From assembly GCA_016192995.1 (NCBI GenBank), contig JACPTB010000005.1, positions 206,791 to 238,790 of the forward strand: a DNA stretch of 32,000 nucleotides, given 5' to 3'. Within the stretch, counting starts at the first letter, position 1. Each line of letters opens with the position of its first letter. The position numbers were made by a program, and so were the translations under genes. Below the pieces are notes generated by a model. It saw only the letters and a list, made by a program, of their open reading frames with translations. It did no database searches and had not been told where the DNA came from. Shown in pieces: positions 151-28,172 of the stretch. This DNA comes from Candidatus Woesearchaeota archaeon. GTDB taxonomy: Archaea; Nanobdellota; Nanobdellia; Woesearchaeales; DSVV01.

Positions 151-305
151 GAGTTTGTCGCATAATCTGCCACCATCAATATTGCGAGGCTTATCAAGTA
201 AAAGTATCGAGTACTTTTCGAGGTTCCAGAGAGAAAAGTACCATAGAGTAAATAATCAAAAGCCGAGCCGATGGTGGCTGCCGAAGGCATTTATGCGACA
301 AACTC
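151..305 (-). repeat. Diverged long-hairpin element (variant G) carrying the conserved stem-loop module in reverse orientation
   Basis: Outer 15-bp inverted repeat gagtttgtcgcataa (151-165) / ttatgcgacaaactc (291-305). Second stem gccaccatc (169-177) / gatggtggc (270-278). Central hairpin gtactttt (211-218) / aaaagtac (234-241) with loop cgaggttccagagag, the reverse complement of the loop seen in the other copies. Confidence 0.7.
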
Positions 306-313
306 AGAAAAAC

Positions 314-635
314 GTACGTAATAAGTTTTTCATAGTTTTAGCGCCGGTTCAGCTTTTGAAGTGTATTTTAATTGGATTTTTCTCTCTGGAACTCCGAAAA
401 ATCCTCGAAATATAGATAAGAAGAGCTTCACAAAAGTAGGCGCTAAAACCTAAAGAGAACTTTGCAAAATACTCGCAAAGCTCGGGTTACTGCCAGTTCG
501 CATTTCAATAATTTACCCTAAGGAAAAAATTCCCATTGTAATTTCCTTTTTTCTTGCTCCTTGTATCGAAAATGCTCACGAAATTGGCAGTAACCATAAT
601 TTTGCAAAGTTCTCTAAAGAAGACTTATTACGTAC
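314..635 (+). mobile_element. Composite MITE-like element: GTACGTAATAAGT(C) terminal-repeat class with core hairpin 335-449 and a second element nested inside it
   Basis: Left end gtacgtaataagt at 314-326 and right end gacttattacgtac at 622-635. Core runs gttttagcgcc (335-345) to ggcgctaaaac (439-449). It aligns with the 154-155 bp copies at 6486 and 8940 except for a roughly 160-bp insert. No clear TSD. Confidence 0.75.
454..615 (+). mobile_element. Nested hairpin element (17-bp inverted termini) inserted into the element at 314-635
   Basis: agagaactttgcaaaat (454-470) pairs with attttgcaaagttctct (599-615). Inner stem is ggttactgcca / tggcagtaacc. Central 36-nt module at 520-555 is shared with the elements at 1126 and 24087. 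This insert is absent from the sister copies at 6486 and 8940. Confidence 0.65.
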
Positions 636-1125: not shown

Positions 1126-1287
1126 GGCTCTGCCATGAATGTAGTTTTTGGTGCCATACTGGTGATTATCCTTCAAATTAATACGTGGGAAAAAAGGAAA
1201 TTACAATGGGAATTTTTTCCTTGTTATAAATACGTGAGATAATCACGGCACCAAAACCCAGGCGTGAGCCGAGATTCATGGCAGAGC
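1126..1287 (-). mobile_element. Hairpin MITE-like element with GGCTCTG-type termini (variant D)
   Basis: ggctctgccatgaat (1126-1140) pairs with attcatggcagagc (1274-1287). Inner stems are tttttggtgcc / ggcaccaaaa and ggtgattatc / gataatcac. Central module at 1187-1222. It is homologous, in inverted orientation, to 24087-24251 but with different, mutually complementary termini. No TSD seen. Confidence 0.7.
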
Positions 1288-1296
1288 TATATAAAG

Positions 1297-1513
1297 GGCT
1301 CTGGTGAAAATCTTTCAGGTTTTAGCGCCGGTTCAGCTTCAAAGTGATTTAAATATCGGATTTTTCTCTCTGGCACTCCGAAAAATCCCCACAATGATAT
1401 AGAAAGAGCTTCACAAAAGTAGGCGCTAAAACTATACTAATCAAAGAAAGTGTTGAATAATATTTGACTTTCTTTGATGGTATATTGCTACGCAATACAT
1501 TTTCACCAGAGCC
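1297..1513 (+). mobile_element. MITE-like element with GGCTCTGGTGAAAAT termini, carrying core hairpin 1319-1432 plus an extra hairpin at 1441-1477
   Basis: ggctctggtgaaaat (1297-1311) pairs with attttcaccagagcc (1499-1513). It is flanked by direct repeats atataaag at 1289-1296 and 1515-1522, with one extra base (c1514) at the right end. Confidence 0.8.
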
Positions 1514-6220: not shown

Positions 6221-6485
6221 GTTGTTTTGAGATTAAGAGAGTATTTATTAATATTATGTTTTTATTAAAAATAAGAGTTAATGGCTCTTCTTGTGAGTGT
6301 GGGGGGTTGGTTTAGAATCAGTTTGAAGAGCCACCCTCTTTATTACTAGACTATCTTAAGGTGTAACTAGTATATAAATGTTACTATTTAGTATACTGGT
6401 TTGGTGCGCAATATAGAGACTTTCAGCTAACCTTAGTTTTATTAAAGATGGCAAAAACTACATTTTCTACAGAGCCTCAAGAACG

Positions 6486-6639
6486 GTACGTAATAAGTCT
6501 TTCATAGTTTTAGCGCCGGTTCAGCTTTTGAAGTGTATTTTAATTGGATTTTTCTCTCTGGCACTCCGAAAAATCCTCGAGATATAGATAAGAAGAGCTT
6601 CACAAAAGTAGGCGCTAAAACCCCAGACTTATTACGTAC
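6486..6639 (+). mobile_element. Intact 154-bp hairpin MITE (GTACGTAATAAGTC class) with perfect 8-bp TSD
   Basis: Terminal repeats at 6486-6499 and 6626-6639. Core at 6507-6621. Direct repeat caagaacg at 6478-6485 and 6640-6647. Confidence 0.85.
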
Positions 6640-6654
6640 CAAGAACGTACATAA

Positions 6655-8174: not shown

Positions 8175-8303
8175 TTAAGCATTTTTCAGCAAGTAAGCTC
8201 GTGCCGTAATTTCAACTAATGCTCCAAGAGGCAGTTCCGCTACTCCAACCATTGTTCTCGCTGTTTTAGGTATTCCCGATTCAATATATCCTTCGGATTC
8301 AGG
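8175..8303 (-). pseudogene. RidA/YjgF-family C-terminal remnant (about 40 codons), truncated at a repeat-element boundary
   Basis: KTARTMVGVAELPLGALVEITARA matches the conserved RidA C-terminus (PARS-V-V-LP-VEI-A). The N-terminal two thirds are missing. The ORF upstream of 8303 is element sequence. Confidence 0.6.
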
Positions 8304-8431
8304 TAGCGCCAGTTCAGCTTTGAATGTGATTAAATATTGGATTTTTCTCTCTGGCACTCCGAAAAATCCCCATCGTAAGAATAGAAAGGCTTCAGAATAT
8401 AGGCGCTAAAACCCCAGGACTTATTACGTAC
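8301..8431 (+). mobile_element. 5'-truncated, diverged copy of the GTACGTAATAAGTC-class MITE
   Basis: Right terminus gacttattacgtac at 8418-8431 and ggcgctaaaac at 8402-8412. Hairpin module at 8339-8369. Left terminal repeat absent. The right end touches the stop codon of the gene at 8432. Confidence 0.75.
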
Positions 8432-8896
8432 CTATTCAGGAGTATCTTCGCTCTTAACTCTTCTTTCTTTAGGGATATAATTAATAATTTTTTTATCAAT
8501 TAACTTACCGCAGCCAAGATAGTTATCGCCATATTTCATAATAAACATTGTTCTGCCTTCCTGGTCAAGAGATATATCATATCCTTTTACCCATAACGCA
8601 ACAACACCCTTTTTCATCTCAAACACATTTTTGGTTGCGGTTTTACCAACTAATTGCGTTCCTTCAATAGAAAGCCGCAATTCAGTTCCTGACATTTGCC
8701 CAAAATAGAGGCCAAGAGAATTGATGCGAAGCTTGCTGAGATCAACTTCACCAATTTGCCGGTTAATAAGATAAATTCTGTTTTCTGCATTCACAAAAAA
8801 GACATAATCTCCTTCTAAAGAAGCTCCCCATTGTTTTTCAAGAACAGACTGCAATTCTTTTATTTTCTTTTTATTGAGAATCTTAAGATTAAACAT
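8432..8896 (-). CDS. Nip7-like (pre-PUA + PUA) RNA-binding protein
   Basis: Start set at MFNLKILNKKK (ATG 8896) because the track ORF's first 54 codons read through a repeat element. Architecture and size fit archaeal Nip7/COG1374. TATA tttttata (minus strand) at 8918-8925. Confidence 0.5.
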   Translation of the reverse strand: MFNLKILNKKKIKELQSVLEKQWGASLEGDYVFFVNAENRIYLINRQIGEVDLSKLRINSLGLYFGQMSGTELRLSIEGTQLVGKTATKNVFEMKKGVVALWVKGYDISLDQEGRTMFIMKYGDNYLGCGKLIDKKIINYIPKERRVKSEDTPE

Positions 8897-8939
8897 AGCG
8901 ATGAAAACGCTTTCTCCTATAAAAATGTTAATGTTTATG

Positions 8940-9094
8940 GTACGTAATAAGTCTTCTTTAGGTTTTAGCGCCGGTTCAGCTTTTGAAGTGTATTTCGATT
9001 GGATTTTTCTCTCTGGAACTCCGAAAAATCCCCGATAAATATACGAGAGGAGCTTCACAAAAGTAGGCGCTAAAACCCCAGACTTATTACGTAC
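8940..9094 (+). mobile_element. Intact 155-bp hairpin MITE (GTACGTAATAAGTC class) with perfect 8-bp TSD
   Basis: Terminal repeats at 8940-8953 and 9081-9094. Core at 8962-9076. Direct repeat tgtttatg at 8932-8939 and 9095-9102. Confidence 0.85.
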
Positions 9095-9129
9095 TGTTTA
9101 TGTGAAGAAATATTCTTAAAGTTGTTCGA

Positions 9130-13353: not shown

Positions 13354-13486
13354 GGCTCTGGTGAAAATCTCGGCATAGCCTCGGTTTTGGCATCAGTTCG
13401 GCTTTTGATGTATTTATTTTATTGGATTTTTCTCTCTGGCACTCCGAAAAATCCTCACTTATGAAATTAAAGAGCCTCACAAAAAG
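13354..13486 (+). mobile_element. 3'-truncated hybrid MITE copy (GGCTCTGGTGAAAAT left end plus hairpin module)
   Basis: ggctctggtgaaaat at 13354-13368, followed by ctcggcatagcctcggttttgg as in the element at 24087. Hairpin module at 13424-13454. Right arm ends in agagcctcacaaaaag. No right terminal repeat. Overlaps the last two codons and stop of the gene at 13477. Confidence 0.7.
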
Positions 13487-13686
13487 ATGATCAATCCAAG
13501 AAGAAAAGGCAATGATAATCCTAGTGAGGCTAACATTTTAAGCTGGAATGAATATGCAACTGTTTGTTCTGTGAGCCATATTGTTAAAAGCAAAGAAATA
13601 AAACTCACAGCAATTATACCTATATAAGTTAGATTATGTTGGGCATCAATCTCTAAAATAGTTTTTTCCTTCTCAAACTCATACAT
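13477..13686 (-). CDS. Small two-helix membrane protein
   Basis: Start taken at MYEFEKEK (ATG 13686), which overlaps the upstream stop (ATGTATGA coupling). Two hydrophobic helices. Confidence 0.45.
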   Translation of the reverse strand: MYEFEKEKTILEIDAQHNLTYIGIIAVSFISLLLTIWLTEQTVAYSFQLKMLASLGLSLPFLLGLIIFL

Positions 13687-13897: not shown

Positions 13898-14130
13898 AGA
13901 ACTTATGTTTCTTTTATCATTTATATATCTTATGAGAAAAAAAGATAAAGATTTTTGGTGGAATCGGAAATCCTTACTTATTATTTGAAAACAATATTTA
14001 AACCAAACTTAATTTTCCGAAATATTTTTGGTTTATTCGGAAATTTATTCCAACATTTTCTTTACTTTTTTCTTATTTAACAATCTTAACTTAAGCATGT
14101 TGTGGGATAATAGTTTCCTCTATAAAAATG

Positions 14131-14871
14131 TTAATGTTTATTCCACAATTTCATGAAGAACTCTCTATATCTTTTTGCCATTCTTTTCGATTCAATTTCA
14201 AAACCAATAGCGGCAGGTTCCCATAACGTGATAATGATCCGGTTCACGCCAATTCCTATCGCATGCGGAAAAGGCAAATTTATGAATTTTAAACGGATAT
14301 TTTTTCTTTCTTTAAACATAGCAAGATATTTTTGTTTTGTTGAAATGTCTGCAATACCTAGCGTTGATATTTTTCTGTCTTCTCGTTTGGCATGAAGGTT
14401 TTGAAAGAATAACGCTAAAGCATCTAAATCAACAGTTGGTGCTCCTATAAAATAGAAATATTCTTTTTTTGGAAGTTCTTCTAAAATATTTTGAAATGCC
14501 GTAACGATGCTTTTTGTTCCATGATATATTTTTGCCGATTCTTCATCATGTGTACCAAGCAATCCTTGCAATTCTTTAACCAGCACTTGAGCTTCTTTTT
14601 TGTTTTTTTCCAATGCTTGTTCTTGCTCAGCTATATACTCCATAATATTAACTGGATTAGTCGGATGAAACTTTTTGACATTGTTTTCAATAGTATAGGT
14701 AACAAACCCTTTCTGTATCAGTCTATCTAATATGAGGTAAATTTTTGAGCTTGAAATACCGCATTTTTCCATTATTGGTCCTGTTGAAGCTGTTCCTAAT
14801 TTGATTACTGATTCATACACACGTATTTCTCCTTCAGTAAGTCCTATCTTCCGCAGGATTTCTTTATTCAT
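14131..14871 (-). CDS. TrmB-family transcriptional regulator
   Basis: N-terminal wHTH LTEGEIRVYESVIKLGTASTGPIMEKCGISSSKIYLILDRLIQKGFV. Length and C-terminal domain are consistent with TrmB. Confidence 0.8.
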   Translation of the reverse strand: MNKEILRKIGLTEGEIRVYESVIKLGTASTGPIMEKCGISSSKIYLILDRLIQKGFVTYTIENNVKKFHPTNPVNIMEYIAEQEQALEKNKKEAQVLVKELQGLLGTHDEESAKIYHGTKSIVTAFQNILEELPKKEYFYFIGAPTVDLDALALFFQNLHAKREDRKISTLGIADISTKQKYLAMFKERKNIRLKFINLPFPHAIGIGVNRIIITLWEPAAIGFEIESKRMAKRYREFFMKLWNKH

Positions 14872-22947: not shown

Positions 22948-23874
22948 TCAAGCTTCATTGATTTCCAGCCGATCAAGTATTTTGAATATTTCTTTATCGA
23001 ATTTTGAGAATGCTAACCATTTCTTTCCTAAATCTTTTAAAGATGCCCCTAAGTGATAGACTTCTTTATTATCAATTATCAGAAACCTATCATGTGATAG
23101 CTTAAATTCTTTAACTTCAATGGGGGGATATTGTGAATTATATTTCATTAAATCGAGTGAGAATTGTTTAGAAATCTCTTTAGTGAATATAGTAACTTGC
23201 ACCAGCTTATTTCTTTTGTTTAACATAGTCAATACGGTGTCATCTAGATAATTATCAATAAGAATTATTGACTTGTTAGCACTTCTGATTATTCTGCTAA
23301 TGAATTGATATGAATCAAATATTTGTCCATCGAAAAATATACCTTTTTCAGGTATAGTTTCCTTATTCTGTAGGGCATCAAATATTTCATCAAATTTTTT
23401 ATCATAATTTATCTGCTTTTTTTCCACACTATTTAATCTATGAAATATTTGAGTATTTAAAGAAATAAGCTTCCTCATTGTTACAAAAGCATTGATTATT
23501 TTTATACTTACCCTTATTGCACTATCACTCTTTAATACTGCTGAAAGCATTCCAACTCCTTGCTCAGTAAAAACATAAGGTAAATACTTTCGATGATGGC
23601 CTCTTTCACTGTTTAAGGTCACAACTTGTGACCTTAGATCCTTTATACTTGGAGTCACTAATTGTGATCTCAGGTGATTAAACTCTTCAAGATTTAATTG
23701 AAACATAAATTCCTTTGGAAATCTTTCAGAATTTCTCTTAACAGCTTGGTTTAATACTTTTGTCTTGACATCATAGAGTTCTGCAAGATCTGTATCAACC
23801 ATTACTTGTAAACCTCTTACAGAATAAATTCTACTTTTTATATCGCCAATATTTATGAGTGAGTTATTAGTCAT
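22948..23874 (-). CDS. ORF6N-domain (KilA-N-like) DNA-binding protein with a conserved C-terminal HDRFLIID...GASLKDLGKK domain
   Basis: SRIYSVRGLQVMVDTDLAELYDVKTKVLNQAVKRNSERFPKEFMFQL is the canonical ORF6N signature. C-terminal H-x-R-x4-D...G-A-S resembles a degenerate PLD/HKD motif (inference). Confidence 0.8.
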   Translation of the reverse strand: MTNNSLINIGDIKSRIYSVRGLQVMVDTDLAELYDVKTKVLNQAVKRNSERFPKEFMFQLNLEEFNHLRSQLVTPSIKDLRSQVVTLNSERGHHRKYLPYVFTEQGVGMLSAVLKSDSAIRVSIKIINAFVTMRKLISLNTQIFHRLNSVEKKQINYDKKFDEIFDALQNKETIPEKGIFFDGQIFDSYQFISRIIRSANKSIILIDNYLDDTVLTMLNKRNKLVQVTIFTKEISKQFSLDLMKYNSQYPPIEVKEFKLSHDRFLIIDNKEVYHLGASLKDLGKKWLAFSKFDKEIFKILDRLEINEA

Positions 23875-24086
23875 TTTCCATCTTACGAACTAATGTGAGT
23901 AGCTTATAAACCTTACTTCAACATGTCCAGTGGAAACGCTAAATTCGGAAAGTTTTCAAATAGAATGAAACCTTTTCGGAAATCCATGAATAAAATGATT
24001 AAATTATAACTTAAATCTCCACTGGACATATGGCTGTCTACTGCTTGGTATCTTGCTTCTGCATATTCTACACACCCCACCTTTCC

Positions 24087-24251
24087 GGCTTCGGTGAAAA
24101 TCTCGGCATAGCCTCGGTTTTGGTGCCGTGATTATCTCACTTATTATATATAAGAAGGAAAAAATTCCTATTGGAATTTCCTTTTTTCTTGTACGTTAAT
24201 TTGAAAGATAATCACCAGCATGGCACCAAAAACTACATTTTCACCGAAGCC
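24087..24251 (+). mobile_element. Intact hairpin MITE with GGCTTCGGTGAAAAT termini and 8-bp TSD
   Basis: ggcttcggtgaaaat (24087-24101) pairs with attttcaccgaagcc (24237-24251). Direct repeat acctttcc at 24079-24086 and 24253-24260, with one extra base (a24252). Inner stems ttttggtgcc / ggcaccaaaa and gtgattatc / gataatcac. Central module at 24155-24190. Confidence 0.8.
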
Positions 24252-24782: not shown

Positions 24783-25652
24783 TTAATTATGCGCGCCTCT
24801 TGATTTCAATACATCAAAGAAAGTATCGAATATTGGTTCATCAGTAGTTACCTGATTAAAACTTGCATGTAACCCAATGCAGATATCATGGATTTTAGAA
24901 GAATGTTCATTTAATTTCTGCTGGTATTTTTCACGCAATCGCTTGCTCATAAACGTATGCAATACCTGATTTGATTCAGCGTCATATAATTTAACATCTC
25001 CTTCAAAATTCAATTCTTTTTCAACACGATCAAGAACTTGGATTACTTTAATCTCTTGTTTTCCTAAACGCAATAATCCTCGTTCGATTTCTTCTGGGGG
25101 AAACAGAAAATCGCTTGCAAGCACAATTAATGACCTTCCCTTTAATGTTTTTCTTAATTTAACCATAGCATCCTCAAAATTAGAAACACCTTTCGCAGAG
25201 ATTTCATTAATATTATCAATTACTGATACCATTTGCGACATTCCTCTTCGCGGCCGTAAGGTATTAAGCTGCGCAGAAAAGGTAGAGAATTGGAATTTAT
25301 CATTCTCTTTCATAGCAAGATACGCAAACCCAGCTCCAATCATACCGCCGTATTCATACTTATTCAACGGTTTGCCAAAATTCATGCTTGCGCTAGCATC
25401 GACAATAATATACACGGTTAGAGTTCTATCTTCTTCATATTGTTTGACATATAATTTATCAGTTCTTCCAAGAAGCTTCCAATCAACAAGCCTTATATCG
25501 TCTCCAGCGACATAATTTCTGTAATCTTTGAGTGTTAATCCATGCCCAAAAGCAATAGATCTTCTTGCGCCGGAGTAATTAGAAGTAACCCTCTTATTGA
25601 CAATTAAACTAAATCTATTCAATTGCTCTAAAAAATCAGTTTTGATGGCCAT
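24783..25652 (-). CDS. DUF58 (vWA-fold) protein, MoxR partner
   Basis: GHGLTLKDYRNYVAGDDIRLVDWKLLGRTDKLYVKQYEEDRTLTVYIIVDASASM is the DUF58 signature. It starts 3 nt after the MoxR stop. Confidence 0.85.
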   Translation of the reverse strand: MAIKTDFLEQLNRFSLIVNKRVTSNYSGARRSIAFGHGLTLKDYRNYVAGDDIRLVDWKLLGRTDKLYVKQYEEDRTLTVYIIVDASASMNFGKPLNKYEYGGMIGAGFAYLAMKENDKFQFSTFSAQLNTLRPRRGMSQMVSVIDNINEISAKGVSNFEDAMVKLRKTLKGRSLIVLASDFLFPPEEIERGLLRLGKQEIKVIQVLDRVEKELNFEGDVKLYDAESNQVLHTFMSKRLREKYQQKLNEHSSKIHDICIGLHASFNQVTTDEPIFDTFFDVLKSRGAHN

Positions 25653-25655
25653 TAT

Positions 25656-28172
25656 TTATTTAAGCTCCTTTTTGAGGATCTCACGGATAACATCATCAGT
25701 TGTCATACCTTTTCTCTCTGCTTCAAAGTTAAGAACAATTCTATGCCGCAGGACAGGGTAGGCTAATTTTTCAATATCTTTTGCGCTAACATGGCTTCTC
25801 CCGGTGATTAATGCTTGCGCTTTCGCAGCTAAAATCAAGCCAATGCTTGCTCGAGGTGATGCGCCATATTCAATATGATCTTTATCATTTCTTGTCGCAG
25901 CAACAATTTTAACCACTGCTTTTTGCAAATCATCAGATAAAGGAACCTGCCTGGTAAATTTTTGCAAGGCTAAGAATGAATTCTTGCCCAAGATCTTTCT
26001 AATCTCTGGATCCTTTAATTGTTTTGCATATCTATTAACTATTTCTATCTCATCATCAAATTTAGGATAGTCTATTTTTATTTTTAATAAAAACCTGTCT
26101 GTTTGCGCTTCAGGCAAAGGATAGGTGTTATGATTTATGCCACAACCTCCGAACCCTGCTATGTAATTTTGATGTTCAGGAACGGTTAATCCAAAAGCCA
26201 TGCCTTTTGAAGGAGCGTACTCAATAGATGCAATGCCATCATAATAAATATCTTCACTGAGCAAGGCTTTGCAATACTCAAGTAATTGTTCAGCCTCTTC
26301 AAGGCATTTTTCATATTTTTGTTCCAGTACTTGTTTTATTGCTGATGCAGAATGAGGAGTGCTTCCCTGATAAAGATTCCATACTTGATTTTTTGAAATT
26401 TGCAATTGTTGAGCAATTGCCGTCATAGGGAGTCCAATATTTGCTGCAAAATACCTTGGATTTTGTTCAAGTTCTGCGGTAAACGCTGCTTCTTTTCGAT
26501 AGTTAATTTCATGGTCTATATCATCAACAAATTGCTGGAGAGAATTAACTGCCATTACTGTTTCTCCTTCTTTTATTCCTTTATAACTCCCATACCAGCT
26601 TCGTTCAGTGAAGGTTTTTCTCCCTTTTAATGTGTGGAAACTGTTTAAACCAAGCATTTCTACTAATGATAAAATTACCCTTCGAGAAACAGGAACTACG
26701 CGGAAGCTTGAGGCAATAGTTCTTTGAAGATTGATTCCCATCATTTTTTCCTGAGATAGCCATCCTATGTTCTTCAAAAATGCAACGCAATCTTCTCCTT
26801 GAATTTTTAGCCTAAAAATTCTCCCATCAAAACGAGGATATGAAATAATGCCTTCACGCAATAACATATAAGAAATGAGGTTTATATTATGTTCACTTTT
26901 TTGGGTGAAAACAATTCTATTGTCTCGTAGTGATGATTCAAGCGCAATAAATGTTTTTAAAAATTCTCTATTCATTGCATCAGGAAAAGATAAAAACCAT
27001 GACGGAATTTGTTTATCTTTTCCACCTTTCACACCAAATCTAATACGAAGATATTCTACCAATGGTTTAGCATAGATAGTAGCGTATCTGCACCCTCTGT
27101 TTAAAGTTACTGCAGGGTTAAATCCATATTTTTTTGATATAGTTACAAATCGATCAAGCACTTCAGGATAATTTTTCTGCACTGCTTGAACTGATTTTTC
27201 GCCAATATAACCATCAGATAATAAAAATCCTATCCAAAACGCAAAATCTTCATCAAAATGTATCTCCTTTGTCAACGGTTTTTGTTCCATTTGTGCTATG
27301 GTTTCTTGATGAGTTGGTATTTTTACAAAGTTAGGGTCAACAGAAATTTTTCGTGGATTAACTAAATAATCATATTTTGTTAAATCTTCTGCTTTTTTCC
27401 ACATTATAATCCCATGTTCATTGACAAGGAAAGGATGGTTTTTAGTTACTGTTATCTTTTTTCCTGTTTTTGTAGTAATCGTTGCCATCTCAGCATTATA
27501 AGGAAGTGTATATAAATAACAGGATTGTTGTTCTAATTTACCGTGAGGATTCAAAGCAAGGGTGTAGGCATTAAGCTGATATAATTTTATTCCCTTCTCA
27601 TCTTCTGCTATGCAATTATCGCCAGCAAGAGCTAGAAGTTCATTTCCCGTCTTAAGCTGGCCATTGATAAATACTGTCTGATCAAGCGCTAAGCTTCCTT
27701 CCTGCTCAATGGGGTTCTGTGTTGCTAAAACAAAGAAAGGCTGGGGGAGTTCATAGGTTTTATTTCCAACAGTTACTTGCTTCTCCTGCATTGCCTCTAG
27801 CAGAGCTGATTGTGTTTTAGGCGTTGCCCGATTGATCTCGTCTGCCAGGACAATATTGGCAAAAACAGGACCTTCTTGAAATTTAAAATACCTTTTTCCT
27901 TGATGTTCTTCAATAATCTCTGTCCCTGTAATATCACTTGGCATTAAATCAGGGGTATTTTGAATTCTTGAAAACTTCATATCCATAACATTGGAAAGAG
28001 TTTTAATCGTAAGGGTTTTACCTAACCCCGGGTAACTCTCCAGCAAAGCATTGCTTTCGCATAACATTGCAATAAGAATTTGTTCAACAACATCACGCTG
28101 CCCTACAATGACCTTCTCAATCTCCATAAACACAGCGTCAAATGTTTTTTTAAGCTTTTCTATTTCAATCAT
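25656..28172 (-). CDS. MoxR-family AAA+ ATPase interrupted by a 523-aa intein
   Basis: Exteins are ESYPGLGKT (Walker A), VLADEINRA (Walker B), VLATQNPIEQEG | TYPLPEAQTDRF and YGASPRA. Joined they give 315 aa, the normal MoxR length. Confidence 0.9.
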   Translation of the reverse strand: MIEIEKLKKTFDAVFMEIEKVIVGQRDVVEQILIAMLCESNALLESYPGLGKTLTIKTLSNVMDMKFSRIQNTPDLMPSDITGTEIIEEHQGKRYFKFQEGPVFANIVLADEINRATPKTQSALLEAMQEKQVTVGNKTYELPQPFFVLATQNPIEQEGSLALDQTVFINGQLKTGNELLALAGDNCIAEDEKGIKLYQLNAYTLALNPHGKLEQQSCYLYTLPYNAEMATITTKTGKKITVTKNHPFLVNEHGIIMWKKAEDLTKYDYLVNPRKISVDPNFVKIPTHQETIAQMEQKPLTKEIHFDEDFAFWIGFLLSDGYIGEKSVQAVQKNYPEVLDRFVTISKKYGFNPAVTLNRGCRYATIYAKPLVEYLRIRFGVKGGKDKQIPSWFLSFPDAMNREFLKTFIALESSLRDNRIVFTQKSEHNINLISYMLLREGIISYPRFDGRIFRLKIQGEDCVAFLKNIGWLSQEKMMGINLQRTIASSFRVVPVSRRVILSLVEMLGLNSFHTLKGRKTFTERSWYGSYKGIKEGETVMAVNSLQQFVDDIDHEINYRKEAAFTAELEQNPRYFAANIGLPMTAIAQQLQISKNQVWNLYQGSTPHSASAIKQVLEQKYEKCLEEAEQLLEYCKALLSEDIYYDGIASIEYAPSKGMAFGLTVPEHQNYIAGFGGCGINHNTYPLPEAQTDRFLLKIKIDYPKFDDEIEIVNRYAKQLKDPEIRKILGKNSFLALQKFTRQVPLSDDLQKAVVKIVAATRNDKDHIEYGASPRASIGLILAAKAQALITGRSHVSAKDIEKLAYPVLRHRIVLNFEAERKGMTTDDVIREILKKELK
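26127..27695 (-). mobile_element. Intein with LAGLIDADG homing-endonuclease domain inside the MoxR gene
   Basis: Begins with Ser (SLALDQTVFING, block A-like) and ends GCGINHN, followed by Thr +1. Contains FWIGFLLSDGYIG and EFLKTFIALESS LAGLIDADG-type motifs, plus an HTH-like segment IGLPMTAIAQQLQISKNQV. Confidence 0.85.

Follow-up and report, generated by a model that had tools for sequence, protein, structure and literature searches.

The window, which is the whole stretch of 32,000 nucleotides analyzed here, contains a 31-nt hairpin-forming sequence in seven copies, one of which has diverged from the others in a way that preserves base pairing. The locus raises the question of whether this hairpin is an RNA motif or a protein-binding site in its own right or part of a larger element and, if the latter, what that element is and at which level, DNA or RNA, its fold is used. 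The window is archaeal (approximately 34% G+C), with genes for aIF-2/aIF5B, ribosomal protein S8e, PUA-domain proteins and an intein-containing MoxR-type ATPase.

The repeated hairpin

The pattern GGATTTTTCTCTCTGG(A/C)ACTCCGAAAAATCC has six exact matches on the + strand of the window, beginning at positions 374, 1358, 6546, 8339, 9001 and 13424, and is present in none of 100 dinucleotide-preserving shuffles of the window, so that none is expected by chance. The seventh copy, on the - strand at 211-241, reads GTACTTTT-CTCTCTGGAACCTCG-AAAAGTAC: positions 2 and 4 of its stem have changed along with their partners to give two compensatory pairs, and the sole difference of its loop from that of the other six is CT in place of TC. 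The outer helices of this copy (GCCACCATC/GATGGTGGC versus TTAGCGCC/GGCGCTAA) are different in sequence with their complementarity kept, as far out as the outermost pair of GAGTTTGTCGCATAA arms at 151-165 and 291-305. The pattern search with its shuffles and the reading of the diverged copy agree with a preliminary description that had claimed six exact copies on the + strand and a diverged one on the - strand, two compensatory stem pairs beneath a nearly invariant loop, and outer helices that differ yet remain complementary. The hairpin claimed there also stands, with dimensions corrected from an 8-bp stem and a 15-nt loop to a 9-bp stem and a 13-nt loop, because the first C of the supposed loop pairs with its last G.

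The 31-mer by itself is a modest hairpin (approximately -8 kcal/mol, z approximately -2.5 versus shuffles). The element that surrounds it, a far longer and imperfect hairpin, has a minimum free energy of -64.7 kcal/mol as RNA (8935-9100, z -7.6) and folds at -32.7 kcal/mol with DNA parameters (8940-9094, z -6.9), so the strong folding signal belongs to the whole element of approximately 155 nt. Comparison of five + strand copies in the window finds identical tip stems and spacers that are approximately 50% identical, and the loop motif does not occur outside the hairpin in the approximately 360 kb of DNA examined.

Architecture of the element

Alignment of the seven window copies shows that they are alike in sequence well beyond the 31-mer, which is the tip of a conserved core of approximately 117 nt and is no unit on its own. 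From base to tip, the core consists of an 11-bp helix (P1), an asymmetric internal loop with a 2-bp helix inside it, a 4-bp helix (P2), two spacers of approximately 20 and 19 nt, and the 9-bp helix P3 with its 13-nt loop; although the spacers are hypervariable, the length of the core is constant across copies at 115-120 nt. Terminal inverted repeats lie outside the core and 8-bp direct repeats lie directly outside those (Table 1), for a family element size of approximately 153-165 bp, or 153-223 bp if longer elements are included. The terminal repeats GTACGTAATAAGTCT, GGCTCTGGTGAAAAT and GGCG(G/T)(C/T)ATTGAAAAG each occur at both ends, inverted, and the terminal repeats that bound the core are of three kinds or more (GGCGTTATTGAAAAG, GGCTCTGGTGAAAAT and GTACGTAATAAGTCT).

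An automatic search for inverted ends with matching flanking 8-mers found perfect 8-bp duplications in the window around the copies at 8940-9094 (TGTTTATG) and 6486-6639 (CAAGAACG), and outside the window around at least 15 further elements, each with a different duplicated sequence matching at 8/8 positions; those at least 15 elements are 161-165 bp long with the ends GGCG(G/T)(C/T)ATTGAAAAG. Further elements match at 7/8 duplication positions, and more duplications were read by eye. The elements have no coding capacity, and the open reading frames that overlap them are mechanical only. The density reaches seven copies in 14 kb of the window, and elements are nested (457-612 inside 314-635) or abutting (1126-1288 beside the duplication of 1297-1513).

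Table 1. Coordinates of the element and of sister-type elements in the window; assignment to MITEs is putative.
Feature	Positions	Strand	Details
Tip hairpin P3	9001-9031	+	9-bp stem GGATTTTTC/GAAAAATCC; 13-nt loop TCTCTGGAACTCC
Core with P1, internal loop (GGTTC / TCACAAAAGTA), P2 (AGCT/AGCT), spacers and P3	8960-9079	+	Model R1, 101 bits
Putative MITE, complete copy	8940-9094	+	Terminal inverted repeats GTACGTAATAAGTCT / AGACTTATTACGTAC
Left 8-bp target-site duplication	8932-8939	.	TGTTTATG; flanks the 8940-9094 copy; directly upstream of the TATA box at ~8921-8928 (- strand) of the gene placed at 8432-8896(-)
Right 8-bp target-site duplication	9095-9102	.	TGTTTATG; flanks the 8940-9094 copy
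Putative MITE, complete copy	6486-6639	+	Tip 6546-6576, core 6505-6624; duplication CAAGAACG at 6478-6485 and 6640-6647; 98% identity to the copy at 314-450
Putative MITE, right arm split by a nested putative MITE	314-635	+	Tip 374-404, core 333-452; right terminal repeat at 621-635
Nested sister-type putative MITE	457-612	+	Tip AAGGAAAAAATTCCCATTGTAATTTCC; terminal repeats GAACTTTGCAAAAT; 45 bits; duplication CCTAAAGA/TCTAAAGA at 449-456 and 613-620; lower module related to the main family, tip different
Diverged copy, opposite orientation	151-305	-	Tip 211-241, core 164-282; 110 bits; all three helices altered in sequence with complementarity kept; outer stem GAGTTTGTCGCATAA
Copy with terminal repeat GGCTCTGGTGAAAAT	1297-1513	+	Tip 1358-1388, core 1317-1435; duplication ATATAAAG at 1289-1296 and 1515-1522; then TATA box 1529-1542 and ATG at 1559
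Damaged copy, left arm truncated or replaced	8298-8431	+	Tip 8339-8369, core 8298-8415; 84 bits; right terminal repeat retained at 8419-8431
Damaged copy, left terminal repeat GGCTCTGGTGAAAAT	13354-13499	+	Tip 13424-13454, core 13382-13499; right arm degenerate, right terminal repeat missing
Sister-type putative MITE	24087-24251	+	Shell GGCTTCGGTGAAAAT; P1 GGTTTTGGTGCC; alternative tip module; flanked by ACCTTTCC
Third sister-type putative MITE	1126-1288	-	Terminal repeat GGCTCTGCCATGAAT; abuts the duplication of the 1297-1513 copy

The three sister-type elements of the window, together with those at L026:6134-6295 and L033:480-650 among the loci collected from elsewhere, make up a sister family with the same kind of shell as the main family, a related lower module of the form …GYTCGCAT … ATGCTCRCAAA…, the tip AAGGAAAAAATTCCCATTGTAATTTCC and 8-bp duplications. 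The right arm of the copy at 1297-1513 contains approximately 65 nt of extra sequence (1440-1495) with a hairpin of its own (ATCAAAGAAAGT…ACTTTCTTTGAT), which may be another small inserted palindromic element.

Relatives in other genomes

A scan of one genome per species, with the loop and the four inner stem pairs as query and the outer stem left free, found 25 loci, mostly in metagenome-assembled genomes (MAGs) labelled Nanoarchaeota, Nanoarchaeia or Woesearchaeota. Seven of these loci are labelled 'Methanosarcinales', one of them a 774-kb chromosome; to judge from the size of the genome, these labels are probably wrong, and the genome matches would then come from DPANN-type archaea only. 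The element is carried on up to eight contigs of a single MAG. The outer stem varies among these copies as GCAA/TTGC, GCAT/ATGC, GCGC/GCGC, GAAC/GTTC, GGAT/ATCC or GTAC/GTAC, and a second conserved module lies lower down, CCATC-GG(C/T)TC(A/G)GCT ... AGC(T/C)TC(G/A)CA-n-ATT-GATGG. Because the sample of 31 sequences in the first alignment had been chosen through the tip, a second, independent sample was drawn by a metagenome scan with the lower module only, which yielded 14 true elements and 2 chance hits. The viral contigs that were searched had no match to the element.

Several relatives share only part of the architecture. Those at L010:4209-4373 (-), L020:2773-3023 (+) and L026:4445-4578 (+) share the lower module or the end type, but their tip domains are larger and include a CCC-GTAA-GGG hairpin (GNRA-type loop). 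At L003:4797-5113, a G+C-rich cargo of 317 nt that folds very strongly (-136.8 kcal/mol, z -8) lies between ends with the shared terminal repeat GGCTGCATTGAAAAG; it has no Rfam match, and the flanks agree at 7/8 positions. A small inserted hairpin (TCGGAAATCG…CGATTTCCGA) is common to L020 and L033:1300-1487.

Short-read contigs of the same organism end inside copies of the element, as they should if it is a repeat. In a related strain no clean empty site could be identified, the syntenic region of L009 not being comparable and the same-organism contigs ending where they do; two window proteins that were looked up while seeking empty sites gave no record. A contig of the same population from another sample (L046:1-1170) is identical to the window downstream of approximately 9134 and has different genes upstream of that junction, one of them for a PIN-domain toxin. 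The rearrangement is at strain level, and divergence begins approximately 40 nt beyond the end of the element, not at its end.

Selection on the fold

In the alignment of 31 sequences, 96.5% of stem cells are canonical and 18/26 pairs have changed on both sides; none of 500 shuffles and no slid control comes close. When 46 copies are aligned to model R1, the canonical proportion is 97.2%, with 22/26 pairs changed on both sides, one-sided stem changes almost nil and a pairing score that 0/500 shuffles equal. The 13 copies ascertained by the lower module have an inner stem that covaries (GCAAAATTC/GAATTTTGC, GCCCGTTTC/GAAACGTGC, GCAACTTCC/GGAAGTTGC) around a loop that stays T(C/A)T(C/A)TGGAAC-NN-C, and their mean pairwise identity is 0.85 in the loop, 0.79-0.80 in each stem arm and 0.40-0.42 in the spacers. 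The bases of the internal loop and of the tip loop stay fixed across copies, which is to say that the conserved bases are the unpaired ones.

Pairing that is kept by compensatory change around a nearly fixed loop indicates that the folded structure is under selection. The preliminary description had drawn this conclusion from preserved pairing and a fixed loop, and had proposed that copies be collected and tested for covariation; the compensated pairs of the 46 copies and the tip-independent sample uphold it. Of the two roles that had been suggested for such a structure, a protein-binding DNA or RNA hairpin is possible, and a stand-alone RNA motif does not survive, the hairpin being a module of a putative MITE.

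Probable identity and proposed mode of transposition

All 46 strong copies (46/46) are intergenic, their positions differ between genomes, and their neighbors are unrelated housekeeping genes. With its small size (less than approximately 500 bp), its inverted ends flanked by duplications of fixed length, its many copies dispersed at unrelated sites and its lack of coding capacity, the element is very probably a MITE, a non-coding, non-autonomous DNA transposon. The hairpin therefore belongs to an unusually well-conserved example of a type of mobile DNA that is already known, rather than being an RNA gene in its own right.

The genes of the window include no transposase, integrase or reverse transcriptase. 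An all-against-all comparison of 326 ORFs from all collected loci found recurring families of housekeeping genes only, with no partner protein or transposase recurring beside the 46 copies, and no pair of ends encloses a gene in the approximately 360 kb examined. A suspected pair of ends in L016 was rejected, as it encloses a secretion-type ATPase and no transposase.

Hairpins with a conserved loop on a covarying stem resemble those that are read as single-stranded DNA, either by an HUH/Y1 enzyme (as in REP/REPIN-RAYT systems and at the ends of IS200/IS605) or as attC-like sites of integrons, and six of the seven window copies are in one orientation. Such a site is nevertheless highly improbable here. 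The 6/7 bias is not significant, and orientation is random across all loci; a conserved 5' GTAG/CGTC tag and R/L boxes are both lacking; and neither the window nor the surroundings of the 46 copies contain a Y1 transposase or an integrase. The 8-bp target duplications largely refute the HUH/Y1 reading, as neither HUH/Y1 transposition nor attC recombination is known to make terminal inverted repeats or 8-bp target duplications, both of which the element has. An integron attC array was rejected as well, the flanking genes being housekeeping genes that point both ways and the conservation lying in the loop, not in the base of the stem.

The preferred reading, which as a whole is considered likely, is of a MITE of DPANN-type archaea that is moved in trans, its fold being kept by selection at the level of the element for a snap-back or cruciform role. 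A DDE-type transposase encoded elsewhere in the genome would move the element in trans by making 8-bp staggered cuts, as the duplications suggest; the DNA examined contained neither its gene nor an autonomous element bounded by these ends. The duplications together with ends of the type GGC... or GTAA/GTAC... are presumably compatible with the DDE families ISL3, IS66, IS6, IS1595 and IS256; a literature search for a matching transposase family gave nothing usable. Only lineages that preserve the fold would keep transposing, so that selection would act on the element, the spacers would drift between sub-lineages, and each present copy would be a fairly recent insertion; the hypervariable spacers set against fixed modules fit selection at this level. 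The fold would most likely act as snap-back or cruciform DNA, bringing the ends together and exposing the invariant bases of the loop to a host architectural protein or the transposase. The scarcity of wobble pairs and the indifference to orientation described below fit this role, which taken specifically is a tentative suggestion with somewhat less than an even chance of being correct. Any RNA hairpin formed in a read-through transcript from a neighboring gene would be a side effect.

Action as DNA or as RNA

Outside the two basal pairs, the alignment contains 5 G.T and 8 A.C cells among approximately 800, so that wobble is almost absent, and because G.T and A.C are about equally rare, neither strand looks like an RNA strand. 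The orientation of the element relative to genes is random (3'-side gene on the same strand in 21 cases and on the opposite strand in 18; 5'-side gene on the opposite strand in 26 and on the same strand in 13), and copies are found in all four gene-orientation contexts with no preference. The aligned elements show no promoter-like motif that is conserved, and many copies lie immediately upstream of a TATA box, a position into which transcripts are unlikely to extend. The window has no match in Rfam at gathering score, and only chance-level matches were obtained for the element, with E up to 10, and for three sister elements; nor did the window yield a tRNA or tmRNA. The near absence of wobble, the random orientation and the strong folding with DNA parameters lean toward a DNA-level role in the element's own spread rather than a dedicated RNA gene.

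Other features are less easily accommodated at the DNA level. The left spacer is T-rich without a correspondingly A-rich right spacer (T 264 / A 115 versus T 168 / A 173), a strand asymmetry not predicted by a model of duplex DNA alone. Conservation of unpaired bases together with an asymmetric internal loop is classic for a folded single strand, which could be RNA as well as DNA; the GNRA-type loop in related elements suggests RNA. The occurrence of the same core behind at least three kinds of terminal repeat is awkward for a pure transposase-recognition device and fits a cargo with its own function better.

It may accordingly be asked whether the core of approximately 117 nt is a structured non-coding RNA or RNA-form module, such as one that binds or sequesters a DPANN protein, that MITE shells carry and copy. 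This, the main rival to the preferred reading, is unlikely, as the near lack of G.U pairs with G.T not above A.C on either strand, the random orientation without a conserved promoter in the element, the many copies placed upstream of promoters where read-through is not expected, and the lack of an Rfam match at E up to 10 all speak against it. What recommends it, besides the strand asymmetry of the left spacer and the presence of one core in shells with different terminal repeats, is the combination of covariation with invariant unpaired bases, a core length that is constant despite the hypervariable spacers, and the existence of sister elements that carry different cargo, also strongly structured and in some of them with GNRA-type GTAA loops. 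The probability is similarly low that the core is a mobile module of structured nucleic acid with its own function, perhaps an RNA or folded-DNA ligand for a protein of the host or of the element, restricted to DPANN-type archaea and captured by at least three kinds of transposon shell. If the core were such a module, the 13-nt loop and the internal loop would be recognition surfaces, and the spacers of approximately 20 nt might carry copy-specific information; should it act in RNA form, it would count among the first DPANN-specific families of structured non-coding RNA.

Ends of the element are often approximately 10-20 nt from a BRE/TATA-like box and approximately 35-50 nt from a start codon, in either orientation, at many loci, among them 1515-1559 and 8896-8939 of the window. 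This placement reflects either a target preference for DNA immediately upstream of promoters or the sole tolerated sites in a compact genome.

Recruitment of the copies by the host as cis-acting signals, whether bidirectional terminators or insulators or sites for chromatin or replication proteins, would explain the conservation of the loop by a need of the host. Oligo-T is an archaeal termination signal, and the stem yields a T4-T5 run on both strands at gene boundaries, where copies either abut the TATA box at the distance just given from the start codon or follow stop codons; moreover, conservation of the tip is 100% in six window copies with spacers that are only approximately half identical. 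The T-run, however, is not conserved, some tips being GCAAAATTC or GCAACTTCC; all four gene-orientation contexts are occupied without preference; positions are not conserved between genomes and neighbors are unrelated; and the placement is explained by the few sites beside promoters that compact genomes tolerate. Host recruitment is therefore regarded as quite improbable, and the specific candidate of an oligo-T terminator was rejected on the grounds that the T-run is not conserved in other genomes.

Comparison with known elements

By their defining features, REP/RAYT hairpins, attC sites and every Rfam family are distinct from the element. REPs are 20-40 bp, G+C-rich sequences with a GTAG/CGTC tag, without target duplication, and paired with a Y1 transposase; none of these features applies to the DPANN element, which resembles REP/REPIN-RAYT sequences in being a short dispersed hairpin with covarying stems and fixed recognition bases. 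The ERIC/IRU elements of enterobacteria and the Correia elements of Neisseria are similar to it, being imperfect palindromes over their whole length of approximately 100-160 bp, intergenic, conserved across species, with internal insertion variants and possible roles in protein binding or RNA processing. They differ from the DPANN element in sequence and domain of life, and Correia elements duplicate TA rather than 8 bp. Described archaeal MITEs, namely Sulfolobus SM1-SM4 and those of haloarchaea and methanogens, are like it in being non-autonomous, with terminal inverted repeats, and located in archaeal intergenic regions.

Hammerhead- and twister-type ribozymes, the kink-turn, C/D and H/ACA guides, the bulge-helix-bulge and group II domain V were rejected as misfits to the conserved bases, in comparisons made by eye. 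An origin recognition box was also rejected: the reverse complement of the loop, TTCCAGAGAGAAAA, agrees with the archaeal mini-ORB, TCCAGTGGAAAC, at only approximately 8/12 positions, a weak match, and the dyad is absent.

The closest described analogue found is bcr1 of the Bacillus cereus group, a MITE-like, intergenic, transcribed element of approximately 155 bp with 5-bp direct repeats, which folds into a long hairpin or cruciform kept by compensatory changes of base pairs (PMC3184786). The two are alike in size, dispersal from gene to gene, flanking short direct repeats and a compensated hairpin; bcr1 is bacterial, unrelated in sequence and flanked by 5-bp instead of 8-bp duplications, and the DPANN element differs from it in having a core that recurs in many genera and within several types of terminal repeat. 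A census of MITEs in prokaryotes places a Woesearchaeal genome among the most MITE-dense of archaea, at approximately 105 per Mb, and gives no description of families (PMC11602168). No paper describing the sequence, structure or family of the element was found in the literature search, and as far as such searches show, a conserved core with covarying helices and fixed loops has not previously been described.

DPANN archaea have genomes of approximately 1 Mb with very little non-coding DNA, and yet seven copies are present within 14 kb and an elaborate fold has been kept across many genera. Model R1 with its 46 sequences is an alignable family for annotating repeats that break DPANN assemblies, and the element is a marker for tracing mobile DNA between uncultured DPANN lineages. 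That its unpaired bases are invariant points to a specific binding partner, predicted to be a transposase or a host protein.

Other features of the window

A long inverted repeat at 23921-24030 (ATGTCCAGTGGAGA … TTTCCACTGGACAT, arms approximately 92 nt apart) surrounds an A+T-rich stretch, and the lower strand contains TCCAGTGGAAAC, which corresponds to the mini-ORB origin motif of archaea. No Orc1/Cdc6 gene is present in the window; the neighboring gene at 22948-23874(-) encodes a phage-type ORF6N domain, and the cumulative GC skew of the window turns at approximately 17 kb. A 28-nt repeat (8911-8938 and 14114-14141, 93% identical) covers a - strand TATA box, and both of its copies are followed by similar N-terminal coding sequence (MFNLKILNKKK… and MLKLRLLNKKK…, the latter then reaching a stop), which suggests that part of the gene at 8432-8896(-), its promoter and 5' end, has been duplicated. 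An intein that contains a LAGLIDADG homing-endonuclease domain splits the MoxR-type AAA+ ATPase at 25656-28172 (-), and the next gene, at 24783-25652(-), codes for a DUF58/VWA partner.
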